NCBI GenBank assembly: GCA_048499675.1
Contig: JASNZL010000003.1
Location: 16,241 to 80,240 of the forward strand
DNA: 64,000 nucleotides
Source: Candidatus Zambryskiibacteriota bacterium
GTDB lineage: Bacteria > Patescibacteriota > Minisyncoccia > Phycocordibacterales > WO2-35-19
Direction: 5' to 3'
A model generated the notes under the pieces. The model searched no databases and was not told the DNA's origin. It saw nothing but the letters and a program-made list of their open reading frames with translations. The position numbers and the translations under genes are program-made. Shown piece after piece: positions 19,447-44,021 of the stretch (positions within the stretch are counted from its first letter, which is position 1; each line of letters starts with the position of its first letter).

Positions 19447-20091
19447 TTAGCTCCTGCGGGAGGCACGCTTGTGCCTGATGTAGCCGAGGCCAAGGAGGCC
19501 AAGGCCCATGAGGGCGACTGTGGTGGGCTCGGGGACTGATTCAGCCGTGCCCGACCAAATGGCGCCGGTCGGCCCTCCACCGAGTTGGTAAACCTCCATC
19601 ACGAGAGTGTTAGTCCCCTGCTGGAGATACGGCGTGAGAAGGAGGTTCATGAACTCTCCCGGCTCACACGCGATGGGCCCGTCGGCGCAAGCCCCATCCA
19701 TTGTAAAATTGGCCGGCTTGAGGAGCGTGCCGTTGAGCCAGACCGCCATTGTGTCATCGGCCCCGAAGGTGGCCGACCCGCTGTTGACCGCGCTCGGCAG
19801 GAAAAACTGCTGAGTGAATGTCATTGTGGCAGGCCCACTGCTCCAGTTGGGTAGGACAACACCGTTGTAGCCCGTATTTGGATACGCAGAGACCCAACTC
19901 GCCCCAGCGAGCGTATCCCAGGCCGGATGAGGGGTAATGTTGTAAACATTACCCGTGTTCGACGTCGCACTTCCGTCGCCGGAAGCAAACGTCACCGTCG
20001 CGCCAATGGCGGGCATCATACAGACCACCAGAAGCAGAATCATCATCGAAACAACTTTCATTTTATCTCCTTTTCCCCTCCGTTGATCCAA
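19447..20091 (-). CDS. PEP-CTERM domain secreted protein (GC-rich)
   Basis: C-terminus VPEPTTVALMGLGLLGLGYIRHKRASRRS. The true start is probably the internal MKVVSMMILLLVV signal peptide near 20061. Confidence 0.7.
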   Translation of the reverse strand: MDQRRGKGDKMKVVSMMILLLVVCMMPAIGATVTFASGDGSATSNTGNVYNITPHPAWDTLAGASWVSAYPNTGYNGVVLPNWSSGPATMTFTQQFFLPSAVNSGSATFGADDTMAVWLNGTLLKPANFTMDGACADGPIACEPGEFMNLLLTPYLQQGTNTLVMEVYQLGGGPTGAIWSGTAESVPEPTTVALMGLGLLGLGYIRHKRASRRS

Positions 20092-20243
20092 AAGGGAGAT
20101 TTTGTGATTTCTTATAAAACAACAAAATCTCCCCTTTGGATATATAAAAAGAACTGAGATACTTTATAACATAATGTGAAATATTATGCAAGTATACTTA
20201 TAAAAAAGCATAAATTAAATAATTGTGTTTAATCTAGTCAATT

Positions 20244-20281
20244 TAAAAGAAATCCGCGTGGGAGCCGAAGCTTCCACGCGG
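20244..20281 (-). terminator. Second copy of the same terminator hairpin
   Basis: Identical sequence to 19386-19425. Confidence 0.5.
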
Positions 20282-20302
20282 AATGGTTTTGCAGAGTAGC
20301 CG

Positions 20303-21100
20303 TTAGCTCCTGCGGGAGGCACGCTTGTGCCTGATGTAGCCGAGGCCAAGGAGGCCAAGGCCCATGAGGGCCATTGTGGCAGGTTCGGGGATCGGCTCTG
20401 TTTGCCTGAAAAGAGCAAATTGATTCCCGTTGGCGAGGGAATCAAATGTTGTATCGGGATTTTGGAGCAATAATCCAAAGTTGCCGTTCGGGCTGAACTC
20501 GGCGAATGCTCCTGGCATCGCCGAACCACCGAAGAGCAAATTGAGTGTGTTTGGCGAGTTTTGTTCAAACCAATACACACTAGTTTGATCGCTCCACGCG
20601 GCGACCTCGAGAAGCAACTGCGATGAGGTGTTGCCATTACTGAAAAGGAGTACTGAGTTGTCGGCCGACGTGCCGACGCCCCAATACTCGAGGTTCGATA
20701 CAGAAATGGCAGGACTGTACGGATTCGCACCGTAGACTCCAGTCCCTGTCATAAAATATCCAATATTCCACCCATCTCCCCCATCAAAACTGGAGTTATT
20801 CCAGTATGGAGTACCGCTCGTGTTAGGCACAACCATTGGTTGCCACGAGCCCGCGCCCACGACGGACAACGATGCTCCAGTCAACGAAAATGCTGAGTCG
20901 TTATAGTCGCGATCACCTCCAGGGAGAGGGATGTCCTCAACCCCAATCCAGATCGTTCCAGCCGAAGCCGAAACAATCAAACAAAAAAACAGAACCATCA
21001 GAAGCTTCATTTTTTTCTCCATTTCTCCTCGGTTCACTAGTGTGTGTGAGGGGAAATTTGGCCACTTGTTGAAAAATGAGCAAATTTCCCCCTCCATCAA
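20303..21100 (-). CDS. PEP-CTERM domain secreted protein (GC-rich paralog)
   Basis: C-terminus IPEPATMALMGLGLLGLGYIRHKRASRRS. The likely start is the internal MKLLMVLFFCLIVSASA signal peptide. Its 3' end is 100% identical to that of the neighbouring paralog. Confidence 0.7.
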   Translation of the reverse strand: MMEGEICSFFNKWPNFPSHTLVNRGEMEKKMKLLMVLFFCLIVSASAGTIWIGVEDIPLPGGDRDYNDSAFSLTGASLSVVGAGSWQPMVVPNTSGTPYWNNSSFDGGDGWNIGYFMTGTGVYGANPYSPAISVSNLEYWGVGTSADNSVLLFSNGNTSSQLLLEVAAWSDQTSVYWFEQNSPNTLNLLFGGSAMPGAFAEFSPNGNFGLLLQNPDTTFDSLANGNQFALFRQTEPIPEPATMALMGLGLLGLGYIRHKRASRRS

Positions 21101-21326
21101 ATATTATAAAAGAGCTGGTTTTTTATTGATATACCATAATTATAATAATTTTGCAAGTATTAAAATCATAAATTTTGCTTGTATTATCCTATATTATTAA
21201 AATATTCGAGTAAATATGTTATATTTCAATCAATGCTCGCTTAGTCCCGACAATCTTGTGCAACAAGATGTCGGGATCCCGACTCCAAATTGTTACTCAA
21301 TTGGACGTCGGGACTCAGTAAATGTA

Positions 21327-21586
21327 ATGCCATATGTATATATATTACAAAATAATAAGGGTAAGTATTACATTGGCAGTACAACAAATATTGATAAGAG
21401 AATAAATCACCACAAAAAAGGTTACAGTATTTCAACTAAAAAATGGGCCATGTGGAATTAGTATTAAAACAAGAATATAATACTTTAAGCGAAGCCAGAA
21501 TTATTGAAATGAAATTGAAAAAACTAAAGAGACATGATTATATTAAGAAAATTGTAGAGAATGGGTACATTAAAATGCGCGCTTAG
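21327..21586 (+). pseudogene. Small GIY-YIG (URI-domain) nuclease family gene, apparently frameshifted at a poly-A tract, with its 3' end overlapping tRNA-Val
   Basis: MPYVYILQNNKGKYYIGSTTNIDKRINHHKKGYSISTKKW fits GIY-YIG motifs A and B. The conserved C-terminal half (ELVLKQEYNTLSEARIIEMKLKKLKRHDY) continues in the +1 frame after the aaaaaa at about 21435. The stop codon lies inside the tRNA. Confidence 0.5.
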
Positions 21587-22973: not shown

Positions 22974-23465
22974 CTATTGCTCCAAATAACTATCAAAGTA
23001 AATCGCGTGGCAAGTGTAGCCATTGGGATTCTTTTGCAAATAGTCCTGATGATATTCTTCAGCTGGCCAAAACTTTGTAAACGGCTCAAGAGTTGTGACG
23101 ACCGGCGCATCCCACCTTTTTGAATCGTTCACTATTTTTATAAAATCTTTAGCCTGTTTCAGTTCTTCTTTATCTTGGTAAAAAATAGCACTCCTATAAG
23201 ACTCGCCTATATCATTCCCCTGTTGATTTAGGGTGGTTGGAATATGAACTTGAAAAAAGAAATCCAATATCTTCCAAAAGCTCGTCACCTCTGTGTCGTA
23301 TTCTATTTCTAGAGCTTCGGCATGTTTGGGATGATTTTCATAAGTTGGGTTGTCATTTTCGCCACCAGTATATCCAGCAGTAGTATTCAAAATACCGGAC
23401 TGTTTTCTAAACAACTCTTCAAGTCCCCAAAAGCACCCTCCCGCTAAATACGATTTTTTAATCAT
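22974..23465 (-). CDS. msrA: Peptide methionine-S-sulfoxide reductase
   Basis: [12 protein letters not shown] catalytic motif. Confidence 0.9.
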
Positions 23466-23856
23466 TTTTCTTTTGCCCGTCCGTAGCTTTTTGCATAGGA
23501 GGGTGAATAAATTTTAATGAAATCGAATTCACACAATGTCTTATATTTTTGTCTGTCATATTTTCTCCCTCAAATAAATGCCCCAAGTGACCACCACAAC
23601 GAGCACAAGTTATCTCTGTCCGTATTCCATCAGCGTCCTGTGTGTGTTTGACTGCTCCCTCTATCTCATCATCAAAACTCGGCCAACCACAATCACTCTC
23701 AAATTTATCTTTCGAATTATACAAAGGTGCATCACACTGCCGACACACATATACACCATGAGAAGTATTATTAACATACTCACCCACAAAAGGCGCTTCA
23801 GTCCCCTTATCAATTATCACCCTCTTCTCCTCTTCTGTTAGTTTATTCAATTCCAT
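23458..23856 (-). CDS. msrB: Peptide methionine-R-sulfoxide reductase
   Basis: CxxC...CxxC zinc site, CGWPSF, and [17 protein letters not shown] (SelR). 8-bp overlap with msrA. Confidence 0.9.
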
Positions 23857-29021: not shown

Positions 29022-32000
29022 TTATGCAACCAATTCATTGACGCTTTCGTACACATACCCAAAAATTTTTGAGGTTTTTGATTCGATCAAGCCTTCATCA
29101 TACGGCTCAGGTAGTTCATCATACAAAACATCTTTTATAGTTACCAAAACCTTTGCTCTACCCTGTTGAGTTTTTCTCCAATCAAGAACAAAAGCTGTTT
29201 GTCTCAATTTCTGTAACAAATCTTTTGCAACTTTCTTGATCTCCTTAATTTCATTTTCTTTCAAGTCTTCTTTATAAAGCAAATCAAAAATCGCAAGCTC
29301 TTCTTCAGTCAGCTCTTCTCTCACCCCTCTTTTTTCTTCATCGTTTAAAGATTCTGCAAATTTCATCAAAGCCTCAAAAAAATCTTCAATATTTTTTGAG
29401 CCAGAATTATATTCTGAAAGTAATTTTTCAAATTGCTCTACTAGTTTTTGTCTTGTTGGATTAAGTCGCACCAATTCTTCAAGTTTTTCTTTCAAAGATT
29501 GCTTCAATTTTTCTGCTTCTTTTCTTTTATTTTTTTCAAAATACTTTCGCAATTTCTCAAAATCAATCTTACTCAAATCATACGGCTTATAATCTTCAGA
29601 AATCACATACCCTTCAGCAGTGATTGCATTATCAAGAAGCTCTTCAATAGCGTCTGCAACGTCTTCTACATTCACATCTTTTCGGGTCAAGATTCGCACA
29701 CGCTCTGCCAGAACTCGATACAATTTTACTACATTAAAAAATTCACTCGCACTTGGATCAGGCATAATAGCCCCCAAAAGACTTGTCGCGCGATTACTCA
29801 TCATCAAAAATTCGTTCTTGGATTCCTCATTAGTCAAAATGGCATCCACAGCACCATCAATCAAAGCTAGTTTTTCAAAATCAACAGATTTTTCTATATC
29901 TAAAATATCAATAGAATGTTCATTACAATATTTATCAAGCTCACACAAAACTCCTCGTAATTCATTTACCAGTTCTGTTTTTGGTTTTATGGGCTTTGCA
30001 TCTTCATCACCTCGCGCTCCATAAATAGCCAAAGCTTTTTTCAGACTTCGAAATACTCCGATATAGTCCACAATCAATCCATTTGTCTTTGCGCCCCAAA
30101 CACGGTTTGCACGAGCAATCGTTTGCATCAATGTGTGATTTTTCATCGGCTTATCCAGATACACCGTCGAAATAATCGGTGCATCAAATCCAGTCAGCCA
30201 CATATTGCAGACAATCACAATTTTCAAAGGATCATTTACATCTTTGAATTTCTTTTCCAAATCCTCATTTATCATTCTTCGGCGATGAGTTTCTATATCA
30301 AGCCCAAGCTTTCGGAAATCATCCACTTCGTTTTGAGCCGAACTCATAACTACCGCAATATCAGGACAGTTTGGCTGCGCCTTCATTTTGTCATACATTT
30401 TCACCGCAGTTGGTCGATCTATCGCCACAAACAACGCCTTACCATCATTCCCTTGGCTGTTAAAATGTTCAATCACATCACGGGCAATAGTGTTCAATCG
30501 TTCTTCTCTCGTGATCAAATGATATTCAGTATTAAATTCTCGTTCAAGCTTTTTCTCTTGATCATCATCAAGCTCAAAAGTTTCAAGCACTGTTCCCAAA
30601 TCCTGCCCTAAACTCTCCAAATCAATCTGCAGCTCTGGAATACGGTTCTCGTAATACAAAGGCACTGTCGCCTTGTCATCCACAGACTGCTTGAAATCAT
30701 AAATACTGACATAGTCTCCAAAAGTATTCTTGGTTTGTTCTTCTTCGCCAGAAATAAGCGGAGTTCCTGTAAATCCGATAAATGAAGCATTCGGTAAAGC
30801 CCGACGCATATTGAGCGCCAGAGTGTCATACTGGCTTCGGTGAGCCTCGTCAGTCATCACGATAATATCGCTTCTATCTGAAAGCTTTGGAAACTCTTTT
30901 TCTGCTTCTTGCAATTGGAATTTGTGAATCAAGGTAAAAATATTGCGATGGTCTTCGGTCAAAAGCATTCTCAAATGATCAACACTTTTTGCTCTCACCA
31001 TTTCTTCAGGCTCAAGCACCGCACCCACACCCGCAAAGTTTGCATAAATCTGCTTGTCGAGTTCCTGCCTATCTGTCACCACAAGAAAAGTATAGTTCCC
31101 TTCATATTTTCGAAAAATCTTTTGAGCGAAAAATACCATAGAATAACTCTTTCCTCCTCCTTGTGTATGCCAAAAGACCCCAATTCGTCCATTGTTTTCT
31201 TCTCGCTTTTCAAAAGATTTAATCGCATTATTTACTCCTAAATACTGATGATTTTTACCAATCAATTTTATCGTTCCCTTGCTCGTCTCTTGAAACAATA
31301 CAAAGTTTTCAATAATATCAAGCAGGCGCGTTCTGTCGCAGATACCACGAAGCAGGGTTTCCAAATCCACCTTTCCTTTTTCTTCTTCATCACTAATTCT
31401 TTTCCAATCAGAAAAATGTTCAAACCCGCTCGTAATAGAACCCATCTTTGCATCAAGTCCATTTGAAATAATCAAAAGCTGGTTGTACCAAAATATCTGC
31501 GGAATTGTGTCTTTATAGTCTCGAATATTTCCATCAAATGCATCTCGCAAGTTTTTGTGCGCAGCTTTGAGCTCGACAAACACTAACGGCAACCCATTCA
31601 CAAAACCCACCAAGTCCGCTCGGCGTTTATACATATCACCCGAAATCCACATCTGTGACACCAAAGTAAAATGATTGTTCTCTGGATTATCAAAATCAAT
31701 CACACGCACCGTTTCCACATCACGAGTTCCGTCATCACTCACCACATCCACCTTGACCCCGTTTTTCAAAAGCTCATAGATTTCTTTGTTCGCTTTGACC
31801 ATACTCATTTTTGAGCGGTCTTTAATGATTTCTTCTATTGCTTCATCAATAGCACTTTTTGCGATGTTTGGATTTAATTTCTCCAAAGCAGTCCGAAGAC
31901 GAGAAAACAAGACAACCTGACCCTGATGTTCCCTCCCAAGCCTTGCATCACCTTCGTCAGTATAGGCATTCACAAAATCCATTTCGCCATCTTTTCCAGC

Positions 32001-32066
32001 CCAAAGTTCCGACAAAAGCCGGATTGCAGGTTGTTCTATGAGATTGTCTTCGTTAAAGGGGTTCAT
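29022..32066 (-). CDS. hsdR: Type I restriction enzyme R subunit
   Basis: 1014 aa with an HsdR N-terminal domain, SF2 helicase motifs (Walker A, then DEAHRS) and a long coiled C-terminus. Confidence 0.9.
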
Positions 32067-32075
32067 ATTATTATA

Positions 32076-33551
32076 TTAAAGCATTTTTTCTATTTTTTTT
32101 CTAAATTTTTCTACCTCAGTATTATTATTGTGAATCCAAAGTTTCCACACATGACTAGCATTTCTCCCCCAAAATTTTTTTTGACTACTATACCATTTCT
32201 TTAATTTTTCTCTTAATTTACTTTTATCTAACTCACCATCAAGTACTGATAATTCCTTAAAGCAAAATGGTTTGTTATAGCCTGCTTGTTTTTTCCAAAA
32301 AACATCACCAGCATCTACAGTTTTAAGAAAATCATACATCAACCTGTCTGGCCCCTTTGATCCAGGTAAACAAATTACATTGGAAACACTGGTAACATTT
32401 GAATCGCCATCCAAAACAATAATGGATTTTTGAAAATCTGGGATCTTCTTTTTTGCCAAATCATTTAAAACTTTATATCCAAGTTTTGTTGATATTATGT
32501 TTACCCTGTCTTTTTGTTCTGTTGTTAAAATATTTTTTAACAAATCAACAGCTTCGTCGTCTTCGCAATATAAATACTTTTTGTTTTTTTGAATTTTAAA
32601 ACCATCTGGCCCTAAAACTAGTAAACTACTTCGTATTGCATTAAAGTCCAAGTCATATAAAACATTAATTTCACCATGTGACTTATCTAAGAAAATAATT
32701 TTTGAATCACTCAACTCCTTAACCTTTTCTAACACTTCCAAAGAATGTGTAGTGAAGAATATTTGCAAATTGAGTTGTTTTGAAACTTTGTCTAAATAAT
32801 TTATTAATCGTATTTGAGCCGCAGGAAACAAACTTGCATCTATTTCATCAATTAATAAAACTCCTCCATTGTATTTATCACCTAATTCTTTTTGCAATCT
32901 CTTATAAGAAATAATTACGGTAATGATGTGACCTAAATTATCTTGTCCAGCTGAATTTCCCAAATGATTGTAGTCTTTAGTAGTTGGAGCATAAAATTTT
33001 TTATTTGTTGATCTTACTGATTCGGGAATAATTTTTTCATCAATTATTAAAATATCGTTATGAATTTCTTCATAATATTTAATTTCTTGTTGTGTAAGTT
33101 CAGAAATTTCACTTTTAATTTCAGCCTCAATATTCAAAGGAAATAATCTACCCATACCTAAATATTGCACTGGAAAATTTAATTTACCTTCATCTTTAGC
33201 ACTCTTTCCAACCCTTATTCTTATTGTTTTTTGCTTACCTTTTTCTATGCGATCATAAGACAAAGCTTTTATATTTTTATTGTCATCAAAATATGTTATC
33301 CACTCATGAGTTCCAGATTTATCAAATTCAGGATATGCAAATTTAAAAATATCAGAAAATTCTGTAGAGAAATTTTTACCTGTAAGATTTTTGTAAGAAT
33401 TATCAAAATTAAAAATATGCCCTATTAAACCTAGTATTGTAGTTTTTATTGTTCCATTTTGGCCAGCAATTGCATTTAATCTTGACGCAAAATTTACCTC
33501 TAAATTAGAGACTTTTCTAAATTTTAATATTTCTAATTTAGTAATTTTCAT
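32076..33551 (-). CDS. Restriction-linked ATPase (RloA/RloB-like): ABC/AAA_21-type ATPase with a C-terminal Toprim/DUF4435 (OLD-like) domain
   Basis: N-terminal AGQNGTIKTTILGL (atypical Walker A), Walker B VLLIDEIDASLF, and an H-loop TTHS. The C-terminal segment with IIVLDGDS is Toprim-like. It sits between hsdR and hsdS. Confidence 0.6.
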   Translation of the reverse strand: MKITKLEILKFRKVSNLEVNFASRLNAIAGQNGTIKTTILGLIGHIFNFDNSYKNLTGKNFSTEFSDIFKFAYPEFDKSGTHEWITYFDDNKNIKALSYDRIEKGKQKTIRIRVGKSAKDEGKLNFPVQYLGMGRLFPLNIEAEIKSEISELTQQEIKYYEEIHNDILIIDEKIIPESVRSTNKKFYAPTTKDYNHLGNSAGQDNLGHIITVIISYKRLQKELGDKYNGGVLLIDEIDASLFPAAQIRLINYLDKVSKQLNLQIFFTTHSLEVLEKVKELSDSKIIFLDKSHGEINVLYDLDFNAIRSSLLVLGPDGFKIQKNKKYLYCEDDEAVDLLKNILTTEQKDRVNIISTKLGYKVLNDLAKKKIPDFQKSIIVLDGDSNVTSVSNVICLPGSKGPDRLMYDFLKTVDAGDVFWKKQAGYNKPFCFKELSVLDGELDKSKLREKLKKWYSSQKKFWGRNASHVWKLWIHNNNTEVEKFRKKIEKML

Positions 33552-33556
33552 AAAAT

Positions 33557-34762
33557 TTATTTAACCTCCACTCGCCCACCGACTAACTGCGGAATGAGGA
33601 TGTCTCTTGTTTTTTGTAAGTTTTGGTTTTGTTTTTTTAAATTTAAAACCTGAATAAAAACATCGTTTAATTTTTCATTTATATTATTTAATGCTTCTTC
33701 AGCAGGTATAATAATTTCAAAATCTTTAATTGCTGAGCTTGCATGCATAATTGTTGTACCTTTTGCATGTTCTTTGATTTTATTTTGAATATCTTCAGAA
33801 TTCATATAGCAATATAAAAATCCGTCAGAAAAAATTTCTGATTTTATTTTTCTTATTCCTGATGAGTATGCGCCATTAAAACCGAATCTAACTAAGCCAA
33901 CGGAACCATCAAAACTTACCAAAACATCATTCTCTTCACATATTTTTCCTTTACATAAATTTATATCTACAAAAATATTTTGCTCTTTGTTTAGATCAGA
34001 AACTCTAATAAATTTTACAAAATTGTTTATTTGAATCTCTGAATAACTAGAAGAACCAGGCTCAACACCTCTCTCAAAAGAAATTATTTCTTCTGCTTTC
34101 TTCACCTCCCACCCATTAGGTAATCCATCTTTTACAGGTTTTACAAACCATTCTTTGTAGAGGGTTTGGGCGAGGGTTTCGAGGGTTTTTATTTTCTTTT
34201 GATTCACCTCAATCAAATCATCATATGCCGAAAGCACCTCCGCAATTTTCTTTTGTTTGGAGAGAGGAGGAAGCAAAAACTCAAACTCTTTTAAAACTGG
34301 AGCATTCGCGTGCGGTTGAGCAGCGCCGCCCGCATTTTGAACTACGAAACTTTTAAAAATATCAGATTCTATTAAAGAACCAAGGAAAAAATTATCTAAA
34401 TCTTGAGTTTTAGGTTTGATTCTTATTAAGTACGAAGCAAAAACAGAATTTATAGGAGGGTCTTTTCTAAAAAGTTTTGCATATCCAGCGGTCGCGCCAG
34501 TTCTAGCAACAACAATATCCCCTTTTTTTAATAAAAATTGATTTAGTTTATTTTCTTCTATTTTACAAAATGGAACATTATTCCAATCTATCAATTGAGG
34601 TACGATATCTGTGATTCTAATTAACTTTACACCCGTATCTTTGTTTTCAGCAGAAGCAGTAAAGCCATAAGAAAAATCGCAAACCTCACCCAACTTCACC
34701 CTCTTCCACTCCGTCTTGCGAGTTTTCTCCCTACTATTCTTTTGTGTCGTTTGTGTAGGCAT
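33557..34762 (-). CDS. hsdS: Type I restriction enzyme specificity subunit
   Basis: Two target-recognition domains separated by the conserved central helix (KQKKIAEVLSAYDDLIEVNQKKIKTLETLAQTLYKEWF). Confidence 0.85.
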   Translation of the reverse strand: MPTQTTQKNSREKTRKTEWKRVKLGEVCDFSYGFTASAENKDTGVKLIRITDIVPQLIDWNNVPFCKIEENKLNQFLLKKGDIVVARTGATAGYAKLFRKDPPINSVFASYLIRIKPKTQDLDNFFLGSLIESDIFKSFVVQNAGGAAQPHANAPVLKEFEFLLPPLSKQKKIAEVLSAYDDLIEVNQKKIKTLETLAQTLYKEWFVKPVKDGLPNGWEVKKAEEIISFERGVEPGSSSYSEIQINNFVKFIRVSDLNKEQNIFVDINLCKGKICEENDVLVSFDGSVGLVRFGFNGAYSSGIRKIKSEIFSDGFLYCYMNSEDIQNKIKEHAKGTTIMHASSAIKDFEIIIPAEEALNNINEKLNDVFIQVLNLKKQNQNLQKTRDILIPQLVGGRVEVK

Positions 34763-34873
34763 CCCAGTACTAAAATTTTAAATTAAAACTAATAATTTTA
34801 TCAGCGTATATCTCCTTATTCTTTTGTGTATTTTTATTTAACATAATCAAAAATTTAGTACCGGACAAGTATA

Positions 34874-36145
34874 TTATTTCAATAAATCATCAAGCTCAGC
34901 ATTCAGAAGTGCCGACTTGGTCAAGACGATCTGTTCACTTCTCACTAAATTATCTGCAGTCATACGAACAATTTTTGTTCTAATTTCATCAGTCATTACT
35001 TCCCGATTTGTCTTTGCAAGATAGTTTTCAACCTTTTCATAGAAAAGTGTTGTATATTGCATAATCTTATCTCCTGAAAATCTTTCCCTATCTTCTACAG
35101 AAATATATTTTTCAAGGTCTGTATTTATCGCTGTTGGAATATTTCCATCACTAAATTCCATCCAGTAGTCGCTGATGGTGAAAATAAATCTTACACGGTT
35201 ATTTTCTGTGGTTTTGTAATAGTAAATAAACGAATAATTATCAGATCGAAAATCCTGATGTAGGCGAATCATTTCTAGTTCTGTTACTTGATAAATCGGG
35301 TATTGTTTAAGTAAATGCATATAGGTTGAAAGCCAGTTTTGAAGCCAGTTATCAATATAGCGAGTTTCAGTAAAAAGTGGTTTCAAATCTTGTTCGAGAT
35401 TCTTTTGGTTAACTTCGTTCATTTTGAAGGTTAGTTTATCAAATAGTTCCTGAAGATTTTTTACATTGATATTTTTTGCTTTAAGATAGTCCAAATCCGG
35501 AATTATTCTTTTGTTCATATACCAAAGCAAGTCATAAATATCTCGTCCTTTTTCACCAAAAATATCTTGTCCGACATTTCTTTCACCACGGAGGAAAATT
35601 GCAGCGATTTTACTCGCCATGAGGTTTGACATATTGTATGTTTTGATAACAAAAGAAAGCTGATTACGGTTGATTGGGATGCGTTCAGTGGTTGTTTTTG
35701 GTGCAGAGAAAAAGTTTAAATCTACTTTTACATGCACCTGGTCCGATGTGTGACCCAAACCAAGACCTTCACCAACATGGAAGTTGAGTCGGAGCCCGCG
35801 AGAACCTACTATTTTTATAGAAAGAAATTCGTCTTCGGTGCTGTATGTTTTTTTGAAATAGTCATTCATATCGTTTTTGAGTTTTTCGAGAAGGTCTGGT
35901 GTTGGTTCAATATCAATTTCAAAATCCAAATCAACAGACATTCTATCAAGTCCGTGACAAATACGAAGCGCAGAACCACCATACATGGTCCACTCACTGT
36001 ATTCTGGATGATGATAAATACAATCGAGAATATAAAACTGCAACTCTTCTTTGAGAGCGTTTCTCTTTGCTTCAATATCAACACTACCTATTGCATTTAT
36101 TTCATCAAGTCTACTTTTTAGTTTTAGAAAAATTTGATTATTCAT
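34874..36145 (-). CDS. AbiEii-type nucleotidyltransferase toxin (DUF1814)
   Basis: MYGGSALRICHGLDRMSVDLDFE matches the GG[ST]AL...R.S.DLDF signature of AbiEii/type IV TA nucleotidyltransferases. Confidence 0.6.
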   Translation of the reverse strand: MNNQIFLKLKSRLDEINAIGSVDIEAKRNALKEELQFYILDCIYHHPEYSEWTMYGGSALRICHGLDRMSVDLDFEIDIEPTPDLLEKLKNDMNDYFKKTYSTEDEFLSIKIVGSRGLRLNFHVGEGLGLGHTSDQVHVKVDLNFFSAPKTTTERIPINRNQLSFVIKTYNMSNLMASKIAAIFLRGERNVGQDIFGEKGRDIYDLLWYMNKRIIPDLDYLKAKNINVKNLQELFDKLTFKMNEVNQKNLEQDLKPLFTETRYIDNWLQNWLSTYMHLLKQYPIYQVTELEMIRLHQDFRSDNYSFIYYYKTTENNRVRFIFTISDYWMEFSDGNIPTAINTDLEKYISVEDRERFSGDKIMQYTTLFYEKVENYLAKTNREVMTDEIRTKIVRMTADNLVRSEQIVLTKSALLNAELDDLLK

Positions 36146-36149
36146 ATGA

Positions 36150-36764
36150 TTATTTTAAATATTCTTTTACCATTGCGTAAAACACATTTTTATCTTCTTC
36201 TGCCATTTCTTCAATATCAATACGCAAACTTTCTACTAATGAATCAATTTGTTCGAAAGAAATCCCTCGAAACTGATTTGTTTTGAAATACAATAGATCA
36301 AACAAAGCTTTGGCTGGTGTTGCAATGTAATATTCAAAATCTTCTTTTTTGAGAATAAAATCTTTAAAAAGTTTTTTATTTATTGAGTGATATGAAAATG
36401 TCCCAATTTTTGTTTCGTAATCACGAGTTATTTTTTCTGACACACAAGTGATTGTATTGATTGCTTCTGTAGTAAGTCCGTAATACTGAAGAGCAGTCCA
36501 AGAGCTGATATATGAAGGCGTACGGAGAATGTTTGCAAGATAAAAAAGATACGAAATTTTATCTTTGTTTTTCTCGTAAAAGTCTGTTGTGATGTATAAA
36601 CCGTTTTTCAATAAAATAATTTCTTTATTTGCAACAGATCGAGAAAGATATGAATTTACAGTTGCATCTAATACAGAAAATTCCTTTGCTAAACCAGAAA
36701 AAGCCTTTTTAGTAAAAAAGGGTTCTTTTTTAAGATTTTCAATTATATTCGTTCGGTATTTCAC
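36150..36764 (-). CDS. AbiEi-type antitoxin / transcriptional regulator
   Basis: N-terminal MKYRTNIIENLKKEPFFTKKAFSGLA...LKNGLYIT resembles the AbiEi N-terminal wHTH domain. Immediately upstream of, and 4 bp from, the AbiEii gene. Confidence 0.55.
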   Translation of the reverse strand: MKYRTNIIENLKKEPFFTKKAFSGLAKEFSVLDATVNSYLSRSVANKEIILLKNGLYITTDFYEKNKDKISYLFYLANILRTPSYISSWTALQYYGLTTEAINTITCVSEKITRDYETKIGTFSYHSINKKLFKDFILKKEDFEYYIATPAKALFDLLYFKTNQFRGISFEQIDSLVESLRIDIEEMAEEDKNVFYAMVKEYLK

Positions 36765-36876
36765 TTTTTATATGATATCATATAAATTCTGAAAAGCAAA
36801 CAAAAATGTGTATAATTATACATAAACTATACACATTTTATACATATTCTGATTTTTGCTTGTAAAATAAGGCTTT

Positions 36877-38439
36877 TTACAGTATTTTCTTGAGGTTTTC
36901 CTTGATTTTCTTCTCTAAAACTGCTGATTCTTTAAATAGATTCTCTAGATCATTTGAAAGATTTTGGACTTTTTCATGAAAATCCTCTTCAGATTCTTCA
37001 ATTACTTCAGTCCCCACATATCGCCCTGGGTTGAGCGAATATCCTGCTTCAGCGACTTCTTGCAATGTTGCAACCTTACACAGTCCTTTTACATCTTCGT
37101 ATTTCCCTGCCCCACTTTCGCCACGATACACACGGACAATATTTGCAATTTGATCTATTTGCTCTGGAGTAAACTTTTTCTTATTTCTTTGTTCAGTGTC
37201 TTCATCTATTGTAAAAATTTGACGCGCGTCAATAAATAAAATTTTATCTTTTCTATCAGAATTTATTTTTCCTTTATCAAAAAACCAAAGTGTGCATGAA
37301 AGTGCAACTGTGTAAAAGAAATTATCTCCAACAGAAATCATTACATCCACGGCTCCAGAATCTATAATTTTTTTACGAATCTCTTTTTCTGCCCCACCAG
37401 CATCACTCGCTGCGTTAGACATAACAAAACCCGCTCTCCCTTTTTCATTTAAAGAAGAGAGGAAAAGTTGTATCCAAATATAATTTCCGTTTCCTATTTC
37501 ATCCTTTCCAGTAAGAGGTAGACCGAAAGGAAATCGTCTCGCTGGATTTATCACTCTTTCTCTATCTATTTTTCCAGTCTTTTTTCCCCCAACATTAAAT
37601 GGTGGGTTAGCCATTACAAAATCAAATTTACCAGTTGAATTGTAAGGATCTTCATAATAAGCATTTGCGGATGTCACCACACCAGAAAGTCCATGCACAG
37701 CAAGGTTCATCTTGCAAAGATTAGTTGTTTCTCCCAGCTTCTCTGATCCATACACAGAAATTACATCTTGATTTGTTTTCTTGTGCTTTTTTACAAAATT
37801 TGCACTTTGCACAAACATACCCCCCGATCCACAAGCAGGATCATAGACTTTTCCTTTGTACGGTTCGAGGATTTCTACAATTAATTTTACAAGAGAGGTT
37901 GGAGTAAAGAATTCTCCTCCACCCTGTCCTTCTTTCATGGCAAAACTTGAAAGAAAGAATTCATAAATCTTTCCGAACACATCACCCTCAACATCCATAG
38001 GAATTTCACTGAAAGTTTTTAGAAGACCAAACAGGGTTTTACTATCAAGCTTAGTATATGTTTTTGGTAAAATACCTCTTAAATCTGAATTATATTCCTC
38101 AATTTCTTTCATCGCATCATTGATTGCTTTTCCAATATTTGCGCTCTCTTTTAAATTAAGAAGATATGAAAAGCGAGCAATTTCAGGAATATACATAATT
38201 CCTTTTGCTTGGTATTCTTCAGGACCAATCCTTCTTTCACGAACCACAGAAGCTCCGGATTTTTTAACATTTTTTAATTCATCATTTGCGTGTTCGAATT
38301 TAAATTCAGCAAATCGCAAGAAAATAAGTCCAAGGACAGGTTGAGAATACTGATGCACGCTCAAATCAGATTCTGTTCTAAAAGATTCTGCAGCATTCCA
38401 TAATCGCTCTTCAATTTTCTTAAGACTTTCTTTTACCAT
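36877..38439 (-). CDS. hsdM: Type I restriction-modification N6-adenine DNA methyltransferase
   Basis: HsdM N-terminal domain, SAM motif I (DPACGSGGMF) and catalytic VMANPPFN. Confidence 0.9.
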   Translation of the reverse strand: MVKESLKKIEERLWNAAESFRTESDLSVHQYSQPVLGLIFLRFAEFKFEHANDELKNVKKSGASVVRERRIGPEEYQAKGIMYIPEIARFSYLLNLKESANIGKAINDAMKEIEEYNSDLRGILPKTYTKLDSKTLFGLLKTFSEIPMDVEGDVFGKIYEFFLSSFAMKEGQGGGEFFTPTSLVKLIVEILEPYKGKVYDPACGSGGMFVQSANFVKKHKKTNQDVISVYGSEKLGETTNLCKMNLAVHGLSGVVTSANAYYEDPYNSTGKFDFVMANPPFNVGGKKTGKIDRERVINPARRFPFGLPLTGKDEIGNGNYIWIQLFLSSLNEKGRAGFVMSNAASDAGGAEKEIRKKIIDSGAVDVMISVGDNFFYTVALSCTLWFFDKGKINSDRKDKILFIDARQIFTIDEDTEQRNKKKFTPEQIDQIANIVRVYRGESGAGKYEDVKGLCKVATLQEVAEAGYSLNPGRYVGTEVIEESEEDFHEKVQNLSNDLENLFKESAVLEKKIKENLKKIL

Positions 38440-41908: not shown

Positions 41909-42682
41909 TTATAGTTTCTTTCCAATGTAGAATACATATCCGTAAAATTCTTTGTATTTATTATACAGTTTCGCTTCTTTCTTTTCATTGGCGACTAAGT
42001 CTTCTGCAGTTTTGTTGTCTTTATATTTTTTTAAAAACTTTTGTTGCGCAATGATTTGAGGTTTGTAAAAATTATCTATCCAACAATACTCAGGCAGAAT
42101 AAAAGTGGCAACTGGAACATAACCAACTTTTTGCATAATAGAAACTTTGTTTGCAATAGTGTCAATTTGCGGATAAGCACTATTCCAAAAATCGTCAATT
42201 TCTTTTGGTCGTTTTTCGGTAAACCACGATGCCTCAGAGATTGCGACGTACCCACCCTTCTTTAGAAATCTTTTCCATTTTTCTAAACCTTTTTGAAAAC
42301 CAATGTTATAAATTGAACCTTCGGACCAAATTAAATCTAGTTCCTTGTTTTTGAAAGGTAAATTATCCATTGAGCCAACAATTCCCTTAACTCTTTTTTG
42401 GAGTCCAAGTTTTTTTGCATTGGAGTTTAACTTTTCTATAAACTCAGGAAACAAATCAATCGCCGTTATTTGTCCTTTCGTGTTTTTTGCCAGCGTCATT
42501 GTTGGTGCACCAGTTCCACACCCGATATCAGCAATTTTTGATTTGTTATTTAGTCCGTCAATAAAACTTAATGCCTTGAGGGTGGTCTCGGGGCTCCCTG
42601 GTCCTTGTTGCTTTACACCACAAAAATACTCACATATAAGTTTAAAATCAAAGTCGTGTATTGTTTTATCTTCTTCAGACAT
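41909..42682 (-). CDS. Class I SAM-dependent methyltransferase
   Basis: Motif [17 protein letters not shown] and motif post-[12 protein letters not shown]. Confidence 0.75.
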
Positions 42683-42712
42683 ATTTATTTTATATCTTGA
42701 TTATTAATTCTG

Positions 42713-42731
42713 GCGGAGGGTAAGAGATTCG
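42713..42731 (-). repeat. Degenerate partial copy of the tRNA-Ser 3' end (acceptor 3' strand ...CTTACCCTCCGCCA), probable att-site scar
   Basis: On the minus strand it reads accgaatctcttaccctccgcca. It shares 18 of 19 nt with the copy at 42866-42884 (one C/T difference). Confidence 0.5.
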
Positions 42732-42865
42732 GTCACACATAATTTACTGCTGAAAATTTGTGCTACCCCGCCTCGCGCCGTCGCGCTCCGGCCTTCTCAT
42801 CTCTTCTTCCTCACGCAATGATGGTCCACGCGAATAGCTATTCAAAGCTATCCTTGCGGATCATT

Positions 42866-42884
42866 GCGGAGGGTAAGAAATTCG
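42866..42884 (-). repeat. Partial duplicate of the tRNA-Ser T-arm and acceptor 3' half
   Basis: On the minus strand it reads caagagttcgaatttcttaccctccgcaatg, against tRNA-Ser gcaggttcgaatcctgtctcctccgcaatg. It lies immediately 3' of the intact tRNA. Confidence 0.5.
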
Positions 42885-42928
42885 AACTCTTGGTGGGTTT
42901 CCCCACGGCCACTTTCTCCCGCACATTG

Positions 42929-43013
42929 CGGAGGAGACAGGATTCGAACCTGCGGTACCTTGCGGTACACCCGCTTTCCAAGCGAGCGCATTCGACCGCT
43001 CTGCCACTCCTCC
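42929..43013 (-). tRNA. tRNA-Ser (anticodon GGA), type II with long variable arm
   Basis: Hand-folded. Acceptor ggaggag/ctcctcc, 3-bp D stem, anticodon arm ctcgc-ttGGAaa-gcggg, variable hairpin tacc-gcaa-ggta, T arm gcagg-ttcgaat-cctgt, discriminator G. Confidence 0.85.
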
Positions 43014-43142
43014 GTAATATGAGGGATTGCAATTTACATTACAATCACTTCGCTCTTGTGTAAATTGGGAACAATCTCCCGCACTATAACCCTACCTGAC
43101 GGCAGGCAGGGCTATGCGAACCCTCCATTATAAACCAAAACT

Positions 43143-44021
43143 TTAAGCCATCCCTCGAAGCCTCTTTATCCTTTCTTCTGTCGGTGGATGTGTACTCCAA
43201 AGATTGCTCATCTTTTTTGTTGCACCAAATGGACTTGCGATAAACATATGAGCGGTAGCATTGTGAGCATTTCGGAGCGGCGACTGATAAGAAGAAATTT
43301 TTTCAAGAGCGCCTGCCAAACCTTCTGGGTATCGTGTGAGGAGGGCAGCGGAAGCGTCTGCCAAATATTCTCTTCTTCTAGAAATTGCTAGTTTTATAAA
43401 TGTCGCAATAATTGGGGAGAGTATAACAAGAACAATACCGACTATCATTATGATTCCACCTGCTTTTCCATCTCTTCTACCTCCTCCAAGTGAGCTTCTC
43501 AAAAAGAAATCTGCCATTATAGCAACGAGTCCAACAAGCACAACAACAACACTCATTAGCAAAATGTCTCTGTTGCCTATATGAGCCAATTCATGCGCAA
43601 CAACTCCTTCGAGTTCCGCCCTGTCTAATCTCTCCAAAAGTCCAGTTGTCACCGCCACAACGGCATGGTTTTTGTCTCGTCCTGTTGCAAATGCGTTCGG
43701 TGCCGGATCATCAATTACATATATTTTTGGCATTGGAAGACCGGATGCGATAGATAAGTTTTCTGTTAAAGTATAAAAATCAAAATATTCTTCCCTCTTT
43801 GCTTCTCGAGCTTTTGCAATACTCAAAACTATTTTGTCAGAATGCCAATAACTAACAAAATTCATTACTAGACTCAAAATTATTGCAAAATAAAAAATAT
43901 TCGCATTCCCATAATACATAGAAAAGAAATACCCAAGAGCTCCAACCAAAACAAAAAAGACGCTCATAAGAGCATATGTTTTCCAGACATTCTCGCTTTG
44001 ATGCGTATACATTGTTGCCAT
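43143..44021 (-). CDS. htpX: Zinc metalloprotease HtpX (M48)
   Basis: Two TM helices, then HELAHIGNRD (HExxH) and the downstream E of the M48 family. Confidence 0.85.
   Translation of the reverse strand: MATMYTHQSENVWKTYALMSVFFVLVGALGYFFSMYYGNANIFYFAIILSLVMNFVSYWHSDKIVLSIAKAREAKREEYFDFYTLTENLSIASGLPMPKIYVIDDPAPNAFATGRDKNHAVVAVTTGLLERLDRAELEGVVAHELAHIGNRDILLMSVVVVLVGLVAIMADFFLRSSLGGGRRDGKAGGIIMIVGIVLVILSPIIATFIKLAISRRREYLADASAALLTRYPEGLAGALEKISSYQSPLRNAHNATAHMFIASPFGATKKMSNLWSTHPPTEERIKRLRGMA

Follow-up and report, generated by a model that had tools for sequence, protein, structure and literature searches.

The tRNA-Ser locus beside htpX

The locus described here lies in a 64-kb window, by which we mean the whole stretch of DNA that was analysed. 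Next to htpX is a 460-nt spacer containing an intact tRNA-Ser(GGA) gene on the minus strand, together with the two halves of a second, disrupted tRNA-Ser(GGA) gene and a further tRNA fragment. The features are listed below in the direction of the tRNA; L007 is a locus at which a tRNA of the same type as the disrupted gene is still intact.

43072–43126, minus strand: outer tRNA-Ser(GGA) pseudogene, 5' part (nt 1–34), 15/15 identical to nt 1–15 of the intact L007 tRNA
43091–43110, strand not assigned: decayed REP-like palindrome (plus-strand sequence CCTACCTGACGGCAGGCAGG) inserted in the D loop of the outer 5' remnant, two mismatches from CCTGCCTGCCGGCAGGCAGG
43014–43071, minus strand: cassette leader, opening TTCCCAATTT; covariance model R1 matches 43019–43078 (81.8 bits, E = 4e-19)
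42929–43013, minus strand: inner tRNA-Ser(GGA), intact (ARAGORN; Rfam RF00005, 56 bits against a gathering score of 29)
42917–42928, minus strand: cassette trailer, CAATGTGCGGGA (inverted repeat, MFE fold, helix covariation across 6 events)
42867–42916, minus strand: outer tRNA-Ser(GGA) pseudogene, 3' part (nt 35–73), referred to as fragment 1 (BLAST 39/40 to L007; partial nhmmer match)
42866–42884, minus strand: 19-nt direct repeat, proximal copy, CGAATTTCTTACCCTCCGC, which runs from the T loop and ends one base beyond G73; it differs at one position from both the distal copy and L007
42732–42865, minus strand: 134-nt insert between the repeat copies (BLAST and fold)
42711–42732, minus strand: fragment 2, CCGAATCTCTTACCCTCCGCCA, covering a type-1 tRNA-Ser from its T loop to its CCA end (18/18 to the L007 tRNA end)
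21652–42682, strand not assigned: accessory/defence region, from tRNA-Val(GAC) to the nested tRNA-Ser (Pfam; absent from relatives' flanks; not bounded by repeats)

The intact tRNA-Ser(GGA), which a sequence-only reading had already placed on the minus strand, is borne out by both ARAGORN and Rfam (42928/9–43013). It has acceptor strands GGAGGAG and CTCCTCC, G73 and a long variable arm, and its CCA is not encoded. CAATG follows directly 3' of both this gene and fragment 1. At gathering level, Rfam identified two tRNAs and nothing else in the whole window, and a cmscan of 42400–43300 at E ≤ 10 returned the tRNA and chance matches, with no tmRNA, ribozyme, group I or group II intron. A permuted tmRNA and an intron-containing tRNA were early candidates, and were dropped. 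No promoter-like or terminator-like site was seen in a search of the spacer. The 460 nt are identical throughout in a second assembly (Logan SRR21762701, L001). In the closest relatives (HtpX 90% and 84% identical) the same spot is occupied by an un-nested tRNA of yet another type, of which one population variant is interrupted. We note that tRNA alleles at the htpX-adjacent locus differ between strains.

The sequence-only reading described the two fragments as decayed copies of the 3' end of the intact tRNA, each consisting of a T arm and acceptor strand. The sequences do not fit this description. Fragment 1 is considerably longer, extending from nt 35 to nt 73: it comprises GAAA, a mutated anticodon 3' strand, the whole variable arm GTGGGGAAACCCAC, the T arm and ACCCTCCG, and covers positions 36–88 of the tRNA profile in a partial nhmmer match. 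Over its full extent it is 46/50 (92%) identical to the L007 tRNA, as against 30/50 (60%) to the window's own tRNA. The identity to the intact gene is 74% for the 19-mer and 60% for nt 35–73. The intact tRNA shares only 60–62% identity with the fragments, a difference that runs along its entire length. It is therefore not a regenerated gene made up of a resident 5' part and an element-borne 3' part, but is foreign throughout.

Fragment 1 proves to be one half of a separate, disrupted tRNA-Ser(GGA) allele, whose 5' partner, missed in the sequence-only reading, lies on the other side of the intact gene. This 5' part consists of the acceptor 5' strand GGAGGGT, a D arm with an inserted hairpin, and then GTGCG and GGAGATTG. 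The first 7 nt are exactly complementary to the ACCCTCC of both fragments, and the 5' part begins 16 nt past the htpX stop codon, which is the position at which the tRNA starts in relatives. The opening GGAGGGTTCGCATAG (43126–43112) occurs only once in the window, and was matched in 1/100 shuffles when two mismatches were allowed. When the halves are joined (43126–43072, ending in ...TTG, and 42916–42867, opening with GAAAG), they are 86% identical to the L007 tRNA and form the loop TTGGAAA with anticodon GGA. In the MFE fold of 43130–42850 the outer acceptor stem closes around the inner cloverleaf (z = −5.4). The outer copy in the window has been further damaged by the D-loop palindrome, a T-stem change and a T-loop insertion. 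Perfect copies of CCTGCCTGCCGGCAGGCAGG are found in the T loop of the outer tRNA-Arg of L093, and in intergenic DNA of L093 and L090.

A structured cassette that recurs in anticodon loops

The outer anticodon loop is thus interrupted by a cassette of about 155 nt, consisting of a structured leader of about 58 nt, the inner tRNA and a 12-nt trailer. The inner tRNA starts at 43013, directly after the R1 leader, and the trailer ends in ...GGGA, as in the family of nested cassettes described below. The leader folds as a conserved extended hairpin, and also pairs with the preceding GATTG (43076–43072). Its 13-nt 3' end, TCCCTCATATTAC, pairs at 11/13 positions with GCAATGTGCGGGA, which is the trailer plus G73; in effect, the acceptor stem is lengthened by 11 pairs over 13 positions.

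Both the leader hairpin and this leader–trailer clamp covary. The hairpin consensus has 19 pairs, 6 of them with compensatory changes, and the clamp has 8 pairs with double changes; 88.9% of the clamp cells are paired, compared with 33–53% when the strands are slid, and this was equalled in 0/500 shuffles. On the tRNA-sense strand, G.U pairs outnumber A.C pairs by 14 to 4. No Rfam family matched the leader, and neither the R1 leader nor the clamp is present at the un-nested tRNA-Ser genes of 16 relatives.

R1-type leaders were found in 12 copies in nine independent contigs, which come from independent projects (GTDB MAGs, JGI and ENA). Every copy follows the 5' part of a tRNA, at ...TG/TTCCC, that is, after nt 34, and in contigs that extend far enough the host tRNA resumes at nt 35 after the trailer ...GGGA (GAAAG... 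in Ser hosts, CGGA... in Arg hosts). At least eight host contexts share exactly the same junctions, down to the nucleotide. Ser(GGA) lies within Ser(GGA) in the window, in L013 (twice), in L087 and in L091, and Arg(GCG) within Arg(GCG) in L084 and L093; the nests in L013, L087 and L089 have three levels. In L096 the inner tRNA reads TGA and the host anticodon is off the contig, so that a rule of same isoacceptors is not proven for this nest. L018 shows the same arrangement in the D loop, with another leader, and L011 is a decayed nest. The insertion of one tRNA gene within another is a recurrent arrangement in these ultra-small bacteria.

The leaders are 80–96% identical between genomes whose HtpX proteins are 53–70% identical, and in 9/10 comparisons they are better conserved than the tRNAs downstream of them (68–82%). 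GAGATTG is present in 10/12 leader copies; this near-constancy is partly an ascertainment effect, because the pattern used for the metagenome search opened with GAGATTG. Two copies found with the profile (L087 level 1 and L089 level 2) do not have it, and the 5' flank of the leader is constant only in ...TG. One conserved leader precedes very different tRNA bodies, tRNA-Arg included, an observation that counts against the nested-cassette reading. A 12-mer, GAGATTGTTCCC, located 130 nt after tRNA-Val, is inside an ORF and has no R1 match, and was treated as a chance occurrence.

Removal of the insert in silico gives a tRNA-Arg(GCG) that ARAGORN can call in L084 and L093, and a tRNA-Ser(GGA) in L018. 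The outer gene is intact after precise removal in these Arg hosts and in L018, so that excision of the insert at the RNA level may take place there. In the Ser hosts with GAGATTG (the window, L091 and L013 level 2), ARAGORN calls no tRNA in the joined outer halves.

All-against-all comparison of the ORFs within 8 kb of 11 nested loci identified only one common gene, the syntenic htpX, and the T5orf172/GIY-YIG gene of the window has no counterpart near the other nests. Two scans of viral contigs gave chance coding-sequence matches or nothing, and BLAST against the INPHARED phages gave generic tRNA-Ser similarity only. We infer mobility of the cassette from its distribution only, because no autonomous or phage-borne copy was found. 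The loci retrieved include no empty-site allele of the window's own lineage.

Origin of the nest

The best explanation, which we consider likely, is that the locus is a tRNA gene nested within a tRNA gene, and that the inserted cassette belongs to a family of such elements. A resident tRNA-Ser(GGA), of the type still intact in L007 and L002–L004, would once have stood 16 nt downstream of htpX. A non-coding cassette of about 155 nt would then have been inserted between nt 34 and 35 of its anticodon loop, and the 4–5 nt before the insertion point overwritten to GAGA. Because this overwrite destroys the anticodon stem, the resident gene would be dead and decaying, and the foreign tRNA-Ser(GGA) of the cassette would now supply its function. 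This order of events is suggested by the decay of the outer copy and by the fact that type 1 is the un-nested form among relatives. Because an intact anticodon loop is recreated at every insertion, a new cassette could land in the previous one, giving nests up to three deep.

In the absence of a recognisable promoter or terminator in the spacer, the nest is probably transcribed together with htpX. The likely role of the leader hairpin and the clamp is to let the inner tRNA fold separately from the outer halves, to which it is homologous, and to expose its ends for processing. The insertion most likely occurs at the DNA level, in a site-specific manner resembling homing or gene conversion, in which the nested allele is copied and a few bases of the 5' flank are co-converted; our confidence in such a homing-like mechanism is evenly balanced.

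Fragment 2 would require a further event. The 19-nt repeat CGAATYTCTTACCCTCCGC pointed out in the sequence-only reading is confirmed, with two copies on the minus strand (42866–42884 and 42713–42731), 153 nt apart from start to start, and matches in 0/100 shuffles. Of the two, it is the distal copy that is 'native' (18/18 to L007); the proximal copy has a single change. Fragment 2 terminates in CCA and is not preceded by a T-stem 5' strand. The 134-nt insert between the copies includes a GC-rich stretch and has a 51-nt hairpin (CAATGATCCGC...GTGGACCATCATTG) at its start. BLAST gave no homologue of this insert in any fetched locus, and comparison with the conserved DNA downstream of the tRNA in L106, L009 and L109 gave no convincing alignment. 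We suggest that a 134-nt piece carrying its own copy of the T loop to 3' end may have displaced the CCA-bearing end of the resident gene.

Alternatively, fragment 2 might be the 3' end of a third and oldest level of the nest, a type-1 tRNA-Ser that has lost its 5' half and leader by deletion, in which case the 134 nt would represent a long trailer plus the decayed remainder of the gene. Nests three levels deep are frequent in this family (L013, L087 and L089), and L011 has a partly deleted outer level. CAATG occurs after both the inner tRNA and fragment 1, and within the 134 nt the sequence ...GCGTGAGGA/AGAAG resembles the trailer–host junction GTGCGGGA/GAAAG. However, the similarity to tRNA stops abruptly at the T loop, with no variable arm before fragment 2, and the 16 nt to the htpX stop codon leave no room for an upstream 5' half. 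In addition, L018 shows the same kind of repeat, a perfect 21-nt T-loop-to-end copy around 101 nt. We regard a third level as an unlikely source of this one fragment.

For the nest as a whole, we considered whether a dedicated element is needed at all. A foreign tRNA-Ser gene with its natural flanks could have been captured after DNA uptake by homology-facilitated illegitimate recombination, with junctions at short stretches conserved in tRNA-Ser genes (GCG at 24–26, GAAAG at 35–39, and the T loop). This would agree with the replacement, rather than duplication, of host segment 28–34, as expected for a double crossover, and with both junctions adjoining conserved tRNA motifs. The T-loop repeat events in the window and L018 end at TTCGAAT, the most conserved tRNA motif; the sequences following the inner and outer 3' ends of L011 are paralogous for about 45 nt; and no enzyme was found. 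Recombination of this kind does not explain why the same covarying leader of about 58 nt accompanies different tRNA bodies, both Ser and Arg, in distant genomes, nor why its junctions coincide exactly in so many hosts, nor why the leader and clamp are missing from the ordinary tRNA-Ser genes of relatives. We consider it improbable.

The sequence-only reading proposed that the fragments are attL/attR-type scars of serial integrase-mediated integrations, bounding an island of about 18.7 kb on the low-coordinate side that has lost its integrase. The 19-nt repeat spans the T loop to the 3' end, which is the segment duplicated by integrations of the T-loop class; the general model of tRNA-end duplication by integrations is outlined in the Islander work (PMC4383910), and a T-loop attB is given for phage Ms6 (PMC1762012). 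The distal copy is native and the proximal copy carries one change, and the adjoining DNA is indeed accessory. By Pfam it encodes a SAM methyltransferase, GrpB, T5orf172/GIY-YIG, RadC and a type I R-M operon in which AbiEii and an AAA_15 ATPase are embedded. The ORFs at 21.7–42.7 kb have no homologue in the equivalent flanks of relatives, except for one weak 42% match (ORF 23458–23856 to L081), whereas the high-coordinate side is syntenic with relatives (htpX, dnaB, recR, VKOR, rplU onward). Synteny with L004 resumes only at about 11.6 kb, and not at about 24 kb. The defence genes are missing from relatives, but what lies beyond tRNA-Ser also varies from one relative to another; the closest one with sequence in that region has only 65–70% protein identity, and the contig of the 90% relative ends 1.7 kb past the tRNA. 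In L106 and L009 a large serine recombinase gene is located immediately 3' of the same tRNA, making this site a hot spot for mobile DNA.

The repeats themselves do not bound an island. The pair of outer remnants brackets the cassette of about 155 nt, and the 19-nt repeat brackets only 134 nt; no further copy of it was found in the 64 kb with three mismatches allowed, and no distal copy of either tRNA end was found in the window (pattern search with three mismatches; an 11-mer comparison gave chance matches only). Pfam analysis of the 30 ORFs between 10.2 and 42.7 kb revealed no integrase, recombinase or transposase domain. The recombinase of L106 and L009 is of the serine type, lies between inverted repeats of 120 nt rather than direct repeats, and gave no tblastn match to the window. 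The island model also does not predict that the 50-nt fragment 1 has a 5' partner upstream of the intact gene, nor that the intact tRNA differs from the fragments along its full length. Of the original proposal, the accessory nature of the low-coordinate DNA and the idea of successive insertions into the tRNA-Ser gene stand; bounding of that DNA by tRNA repeats, and the identification of the fragments as island att sites, do not. We find att scars a very doubtful explanation of the locus.

Another alternative is that the insert is a genuine intron, as in archaeal split or intron-containing tRNAs: the junctions would be cut, the inner tRNA released, and the outer halves ligated into a second functional tRNA. 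The insertion exactly between anticodon nt 34 and 35 is suggestive, as are the cassette ends, which lie side by side on one internal strand (CAATC:GATTG flank; CCCNCA:trailer), the better structure on the sense strand, and the callable tRNAs obtained by precise removal in L084, L093 and L018. However, in all Ser hosts with this type of leader, the window included, the 5' strand of the anticodon stem has been replaced (GGAGA, against GTGGC or GCGAG), and the joined halves in the window, which also bear the damage to the D loop, T stem and T loop, give no ARAGORN tRNA. Rfam matched no group I core or other ribozyme family; on inspection, the junctions are three-way junctions on one internal strand, rather than two 3-nt bulges around a 4-bp helix; and two identical isoacceptors per transcript would have no obvious purpose. 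We therefore consider an intron highly unlikely. Finally, it is scarcely credible that two co-existing tRNA-Ser alleles were stitched together in assembly: although the contig is metagenome-assembled and tRNA alleles here vary between strains, the second assembly is identical over the 460 nt, independent projects yield the same architecture with a conserved non-tRNA leader, and a covarying leader–trailer helix is not expected from chimeric joins.

Significance and relation to known systems

tRNA genes are classic landing sites for mobile DNA, and the incoming element usually repairs the gene with a displaced piece. The nests suggest a different way to keep the target working, in which the whole replacement tRNA arrives on a gene-free insert of about 155 nt, and both halves of the old gene are left as fossils, repeatedly and recursively. 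If the cassettes are mobile, they would offer a route by which essential single-copy tRNA genes are replaced across deep lineages of ultra-small bacteria. Such turnover, if true, would fit the occurrence of unrelated tRNA-Ser alleles at the same spot in genomes with 90% identical HtpX.

Tentatively, and with somewhat less than even confidence, we propose that these 'tRNA-in-tRNA' cassettes may be a new class of non-autonomous mobile element in Patescibacteria, which would home into a cognate essential tRNA gene at its anticodon loop, kill and replace that gene, regenerate the target and so nest without limit; the conserved fold would act as a release module, and the spread of the cassettes would cause tRNA alleles to turn over horizontally among lineages. 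Together, hairpin and clamp make up a conserved structured RNA that can be studied directly. For annotation, it follows that tRNA fragments beside a tRNA are not automatically island boundaries. Full-text searches of the literature for nested, interrupted and mobile tRNA genes, for tRNA introns in CPR bacteria and for tRNA integration turned up no account of this arrangement.

The closest parallels are the Islander-type tRNA islands and prophages, which use tyrosine integrases and anticodon-loop, T-loop or 3'-end sites. There too the tRNA target is split, the insert keeps the tRNA working, displaced tRNA fragments remain as direct repeats, and serial events are possible; the 19-nt repeat (42884–42866 and 42731–42713) looks exactly like a repeat of this type. 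In contrast to these islands, the cassette brings a whole tRNA gene and not just the displaced part, is gene-free and about 155 nt long, and is adjoined by both old halves; host nt 28–34 are overwritten and not conservatively exchanged, and no integrase was found.

Hairpin elements of the REP/PATE type are mobilised in trans by IS200/IS605-like Y1 transposases. Like the cassette, they are small, non-coding, non-autonomous and built of hairpins, with ends aligned by pairing to an internal strand and no target duplication, and REP-like palindromes occur in the same dead tRNA loops. The cassette differs in having no conserved target tetranucleotide beyond TTG, in replacing host bases on insertion, in having no identified transposase, and in carrying an essential gene.

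Bacterial group I introns occur in tRNA anticodon loops, as in cyanobacterial tRNA-Leu(UAA), which is interrupted between nt 34 and 35, and their homing co-converts flanking exon bases. The cassette resembles them in its site after anticodon nt 34, in its recurrence at the homologous site of cognate genes, in the few 5' flank bases that appear to travel with it (GAGA), and in the pairing of an internal strand with the end of the 5' flank. Unlike these introns, it has no core detectable with Rfam, is too short, contains a tRNA, is not accompanied by a homing endonuclease gene, and lies between Ser-host exons that cannot rebuild a tRNA.

Disrupted tRNAs are known in archaea, where they include the split tRNAs of Nanoarchaeum and Caldivirga as well as multiple-intron and permuted forms (PMC3218864, PMC4390854 and PMC3978253). 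In these genes, as here, the tRNA is broken at or close to the anticodon loop, pairing between complementary leader and trailer sequences brings the pieces together, and mobile elements are proposed as the origin. In our case the host is bacterial (Patescibacteria), no bulge-helix-bulge motif was seen on inspection, and the outer halves are pseudogene remnants with another complete tRNA between them. The nests are in this respect a bacterial counterpart of the archaeal split-tRNA puzzle.

A disrupted tRNA-Ser gene around the intact one

The window contains a single tRNA-Ser(GGA) gene (42928/9-43013, minus strand), called by both ARAGORN and Rfam (56 bits), as the sequence-only reading had proposed. 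The two tRNA-like stretches which that reading quoted next to the gene also exist, and share the 19-mer CGAATYTCTTACCCTCCGC at 42866-42884 and 42713-42731 on the minus strand, which was matched in none of 100 shuffles. They had been described as decayed copies of the intact tRNA's own 3' end; however, the 19-mer shares just 74% identity with that end. Further copies, which might have located a distal att site, are absent from the rest of the 64 kb with up to three mismatches allowed. An independent contig (L001, from Logan SRR21762701) is identical to the window across the whole 460-nt spacer between htpX and the methyltransferase gene.

Relatives were fetched via the neighbouring htpX gene, and many of them keep the order htpX then tRNA-Ser(GGA). 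In one of these, L007, the tRNA has the sequence GGAGGGTTCGCATAGTGGTCTAGTGCGCTCGCTTGGAAAGCGGGTGTGGGGAAACCCACCAAGAGTTCGAATCTCTTACCCTCCG, representing the intact allele that we call type-1. Fragment 1 (42916-42867) matches nt 46-85 of the L007 tRNA at 39 of 40 positions and fragment 2 (42732-42711) matches nt 68-85 at 18 of 18, while a third piece, overlooked previously, lies upstream of the intact gene at 43126-43112, occurs once in the window, and is identical to nt 1-15 (15/15). When 43126-43072, with its D-loop hairpin removed, is joined to 42916-42867, the product is 86% identical to the L007 tRNA and 62% to the intact tRNA of the window; for the outer 3' part alone (42916-42867) the values are 92% and 60%. 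The outer 5' end is 16 nt past the htpX stop, which is the tRNA start site of un-nested relatives. Since the outer halves match the L007-type tRNA and flank the intact gene, we conclude from sequence comparison that the intact tRNA of the window is nested within a disrupted older tRNA-Ser(GGA) gene, arranged as follows.

Features of the nest in the window
43126-43072, minus: outer nt 1-34, GGAGGGT TC GCAT AGCC (palindrome, 43110-43091) GTTATA GTGC G GGAGA TTG
43071-43014, minus: leader, starting TTCCCAATTT
43013-42929, minus: intact inner tRNA
42928-42917, minus: trailer, CAATGTGCGGGA
42916-42867, minus: outer nt 35-73, GAAA GTGGC C GTGGGGAAACCCAC C AAGAG TTCGAAT TTCTT ACCCTCC G
42865-42732, minus: 134-nt insert
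42732-42711, minus: fragment 2, CCGAATCTCTTACCCTCCGCCA
42682, minus: methyltransferase start codon

Across the insert the outer anticodon loop reads TTG/GAAA, and the outer anticodon stem is destroyed (GGAGA versus GTGGC). In the predicted RNA fold the inner cloverleaf is enclosed by the outer acceptor stem (z = -5.4). The htpX-methyltransferase spacer shows neither a promoter-like nor a terminator-like site, and the nest is therefore likely to be co-transcribed with htpX.

Recurrence and conserved structure of the cassette

The inserted element is a gene-free cassette with a full tRNA, occupying the position between nt 34 and 35 of a cognate tRNA gene. This type of cassette recurs across hosts and nests recursively, and its two helices covary. 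A metagenome scan with the leader pattern gave seven more true contigs, of which L091 and L095 have the same sequence; the remaining 15 matches were chance occurrences in coding DNA. The pattern started with GAGATTG, which is absent from two leaders found by profile only (L087 level 1 and L089 level 2). In total, the sample comprises nine contigs with a leader of the type described by our covariance model R1, plus two other nests (L018 and L011). R1 recovers only 12 copies among 59 sources, and no Rfam family resembles the leader.

L013 is a three-level nest: its 5' side consists of a type-1 5' part, a leader, a window-type tRNA 5' part and a homologous leader, followed by an intact third tRNA-Ser, a trailer, the window-type 3' part, a trailer and the type-1 3' part. 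L087 and L089 are also multi-level and L011 is decayed; L090, L091 and L096 are tRNA-Ser nests, and L084 and L093 hold tRNA-Arg(GCG) within tRNA-Arg. L018 (15779-15410, minus strand) has a second cassette type, built in the same way from a hairpin, a strand, a tRNA and the complement of that strand; its leader is unrelated, and the insertion lies in the D loop and not the anticodon loop. In the htpX-adjacent L096 (minus strand, 108-1) the inner tRNA behind the leader has the loop TTTGAAA (Ser-TGA), not GGA, and the host 3' half lies off the contig. A REP-like GC-rich palindrome, CCTGCCTGCCGGCAGGCAGG, has left a decayed copy in the window (43091-43110), where it occupies the D loop of the outer half, itself dead; perfect copies in L093 (3870-3889 and 6706-6725) and L090 (436-455) lie in intergenic DNA and in the T loop of an outer tRNA-Arg, likewise dead, of L093. 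The D loops of the dead halves in L087, L089 and L011 hold other small GC hairpins.

In all cases with an R1 leader, host sequence ends in TG directly before TTCCC; on contigs that extend far enough, the host resumes at nt 35 directly after GGGA. Inner and outer anticodons are the same wherever both are readable. Removal of the insert in silico restored an ARAGORN-callable tRNA-Arg(GCG) in L084 and L093 and a tRNA-Ser(GGA) in L018, and no ARAGORN tRNA in Ser hosts with GAGA at nt 28-31; the Ser hosts are inactivated. Both Arg hosts have imperfect stem pairing at the positions giving GAGA, which we take to mean that GAGA(TTG) moves along with the cassette.

The 12 aligned leaders form an extended hairpin of approximately 52 nt with 19 consensus pairs and the apex CAA-GA-GC-GAA-GC-GA-TTG; compensatory double changes are seen at six of these pairs, and three pair types at one. 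The final 13-15 nt of the leader pair with the trailer, lengthening the inner acceptor stem. Over six events, one of them with the unrelated L018 leader, 88.9% of cells in this clamp are paired, against 33-53% with a slid partner; at eight pairs both sides have changed, 0 of 500 shuffles equal this result, and no pairing of this type was found at the un-nested tRNA-Ser genes of 16 relatives. On the tRNA-sense strand there are 14 G.U versus 4 A.C, an excess compatible with a structure acting either in the transcript or in DNA of the same sense. Between genomes with an HtpX protein identity of 53-70%, leaders keep 80-96% identity and are more conserved than the tRNAs that follow them (68-82%) in 9 of 10 comparisons, which reflects either recent horizontal spread or strong constraint.

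Fragment 2 and the neighbouring DNA

Fragment 2 belongs to a direct repeat running from the T loop to one base beyond G73. Its distal copy matches the un-nested allele exactly and includes CCA, whereas its proximal copy differs by one change and is continued by CAATG and a hairpin of 51 nt. The repeat may be an att duplication of the T-loop class that flanks a vestigial element, the classical model (PMC4383910, PMC1762012), or foreign DNA may have been captured by homology-facilitated recombination, with its end at the conserved TTCGAAT. One or other of these is favoured by the way tRNA similarity breaks off abruptly at the T loop, and by the parallel in L018, where a 21-nt repeat from T loop to end brackets 101 nt; the same observations count against the reading, with a parallel in L011, that fragment 2 ends an oldest nest level which was partly deleted. 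Under none of the three readings is it a boundary of the adjoining 20-30 kb.

The fragments had been read as scars delimiting an 18.7-kb island. That delimitation is not supported, although the region is indeed accessory. On the high-coordinate side, the genes from htpX through dnaB, recR, VKOR and rplU on to 62 kb are collinear with L002, L004, L005 and L013. The 21.7-42.7 kb region encodes a SAM methyltransferase, GrpB, a T5orf172/GIY-YIG protein, RadC and a type I R-M system with embedded AbiEii and AAA_15 ATPase, and Pfam agrees with the earlier gene calls here. None of its ORFs occurs in the relatives' flanks, save one 42% match (ORF 23458-23856 to L081). Synteny with L004 returns only at or below 11.6 kb, over 8 kb in L004 versus 31 kb in the window, with tRNA-Val inside both.

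Genes downstream of tRNA-Ser vary in nearly every relative. L109, L110 and L111 encode identical HtpX; tRNA-Ser is intact in the first two and interrupted after nt 12 in L111, which is a population-level polymorphism. The interruption starts with the palindrome CACGCGCTCCGCGCGTG, a 19-mer found also downstream of the L091 nest. In L106 (8668-10407) and L009 (11500-13229) a 532-aa large serine recombinase, absent from the window, adjoins the 3' end of the tRNA between near-perfect inverted repeats of 120 nt; the whole has the appearance of a compact unit, invertible or mobile, that is specific to tRNA-Ser(GGA). The tRNA-Ser site is therefore a hot spot, and the neighbouring region accessory.

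The two recombinases (Resolvase, Recombinase and Zn-ribbon domains; 70% identical) converge on tRNA-Ser(GGA); the left repeat arm begins in the last tRNA bases, and both contigs end just past the gene. In L013, L011, L015 and L018 the tRNA-Ser locus is 2.7-8 kb from htpX on the opposite strand, unlike the window, so inversions or rearrangements around the tRNA are frequent. The R-M operon (29022-38439, minus) is broken up by further defence genes: hsdR and hsdS are separated by an AAA_15/AAA_21 ATPase, and hsdS and hsdM by the AbiEii toxin with a 204-aa partner. A small GIY-YIG nuclease-family gene (21216-21586, plus) appears to have been broken by a frameshift, leaving ORFs of 81 aa and 47 aa, and the second of these has a stop codon that overlaps the first bases of tRNA-Val(GAC). 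Two PEP-CTERM-motif proteins (19447-21100, minus) are encoded where the GC content is about 47%, against about 35% for the contig, an uncommon finding in a Patescibacterium that points to a foreign origin.

Proposed origin and relation to known systems

We infer that the outer copy is the older resident gene from its native position, the un-nested type in relatives, and its decay. No empty-site allele of the window's lineage was found among the relatives and contigs searched; the closest relatives (HtpX 90% and 84%) carry an un-nested tRNA of yet another type, 13 nt past htpX. The inner tRNA presumably takes over tRNA-Ser function, and the clamp and hairpin would insulate its folding from the homologous outer halves and help to free it from the long transcript. 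Given the anatomy, the chances are about even that insertion is a site-specific, homing-like DNA event copying the nested allele into an intact one, probably after DNA uptake and with co-conversion of a few 5' flank bases. Each insertion would remake an intact anticodon loop, which would account for repeated nesting. No phage-borne copy was found, nor any gene common to nested loci besides htpX, and a domain scan of 30 ORFs of the window (10.2-42.7 kb) gave no integrase, recombinase or transposase.

A limited full-text literature search, which is not proof of absence, revealed no account of tRNA genes nested in this way. Like integrase islands, the cassette targets a tRNA gene and preserves its function, but unlike the case of such islands the fragments match another allele than the intact gene, the 19-nt repeat brackets only 134 nt, and the ORFs scanned include no integrase. 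The bacterial group I intron of tRNA-Leu(UAA) sits at 34/35; the cassette has the same position as these introns but no ribozyme core. It shares a zipper helix with archaeal split tRNAs, but its outer halves are dead. There is a substantial chance that the cassette, a tRNA-targeting element that restores its target, represents a new class of element.
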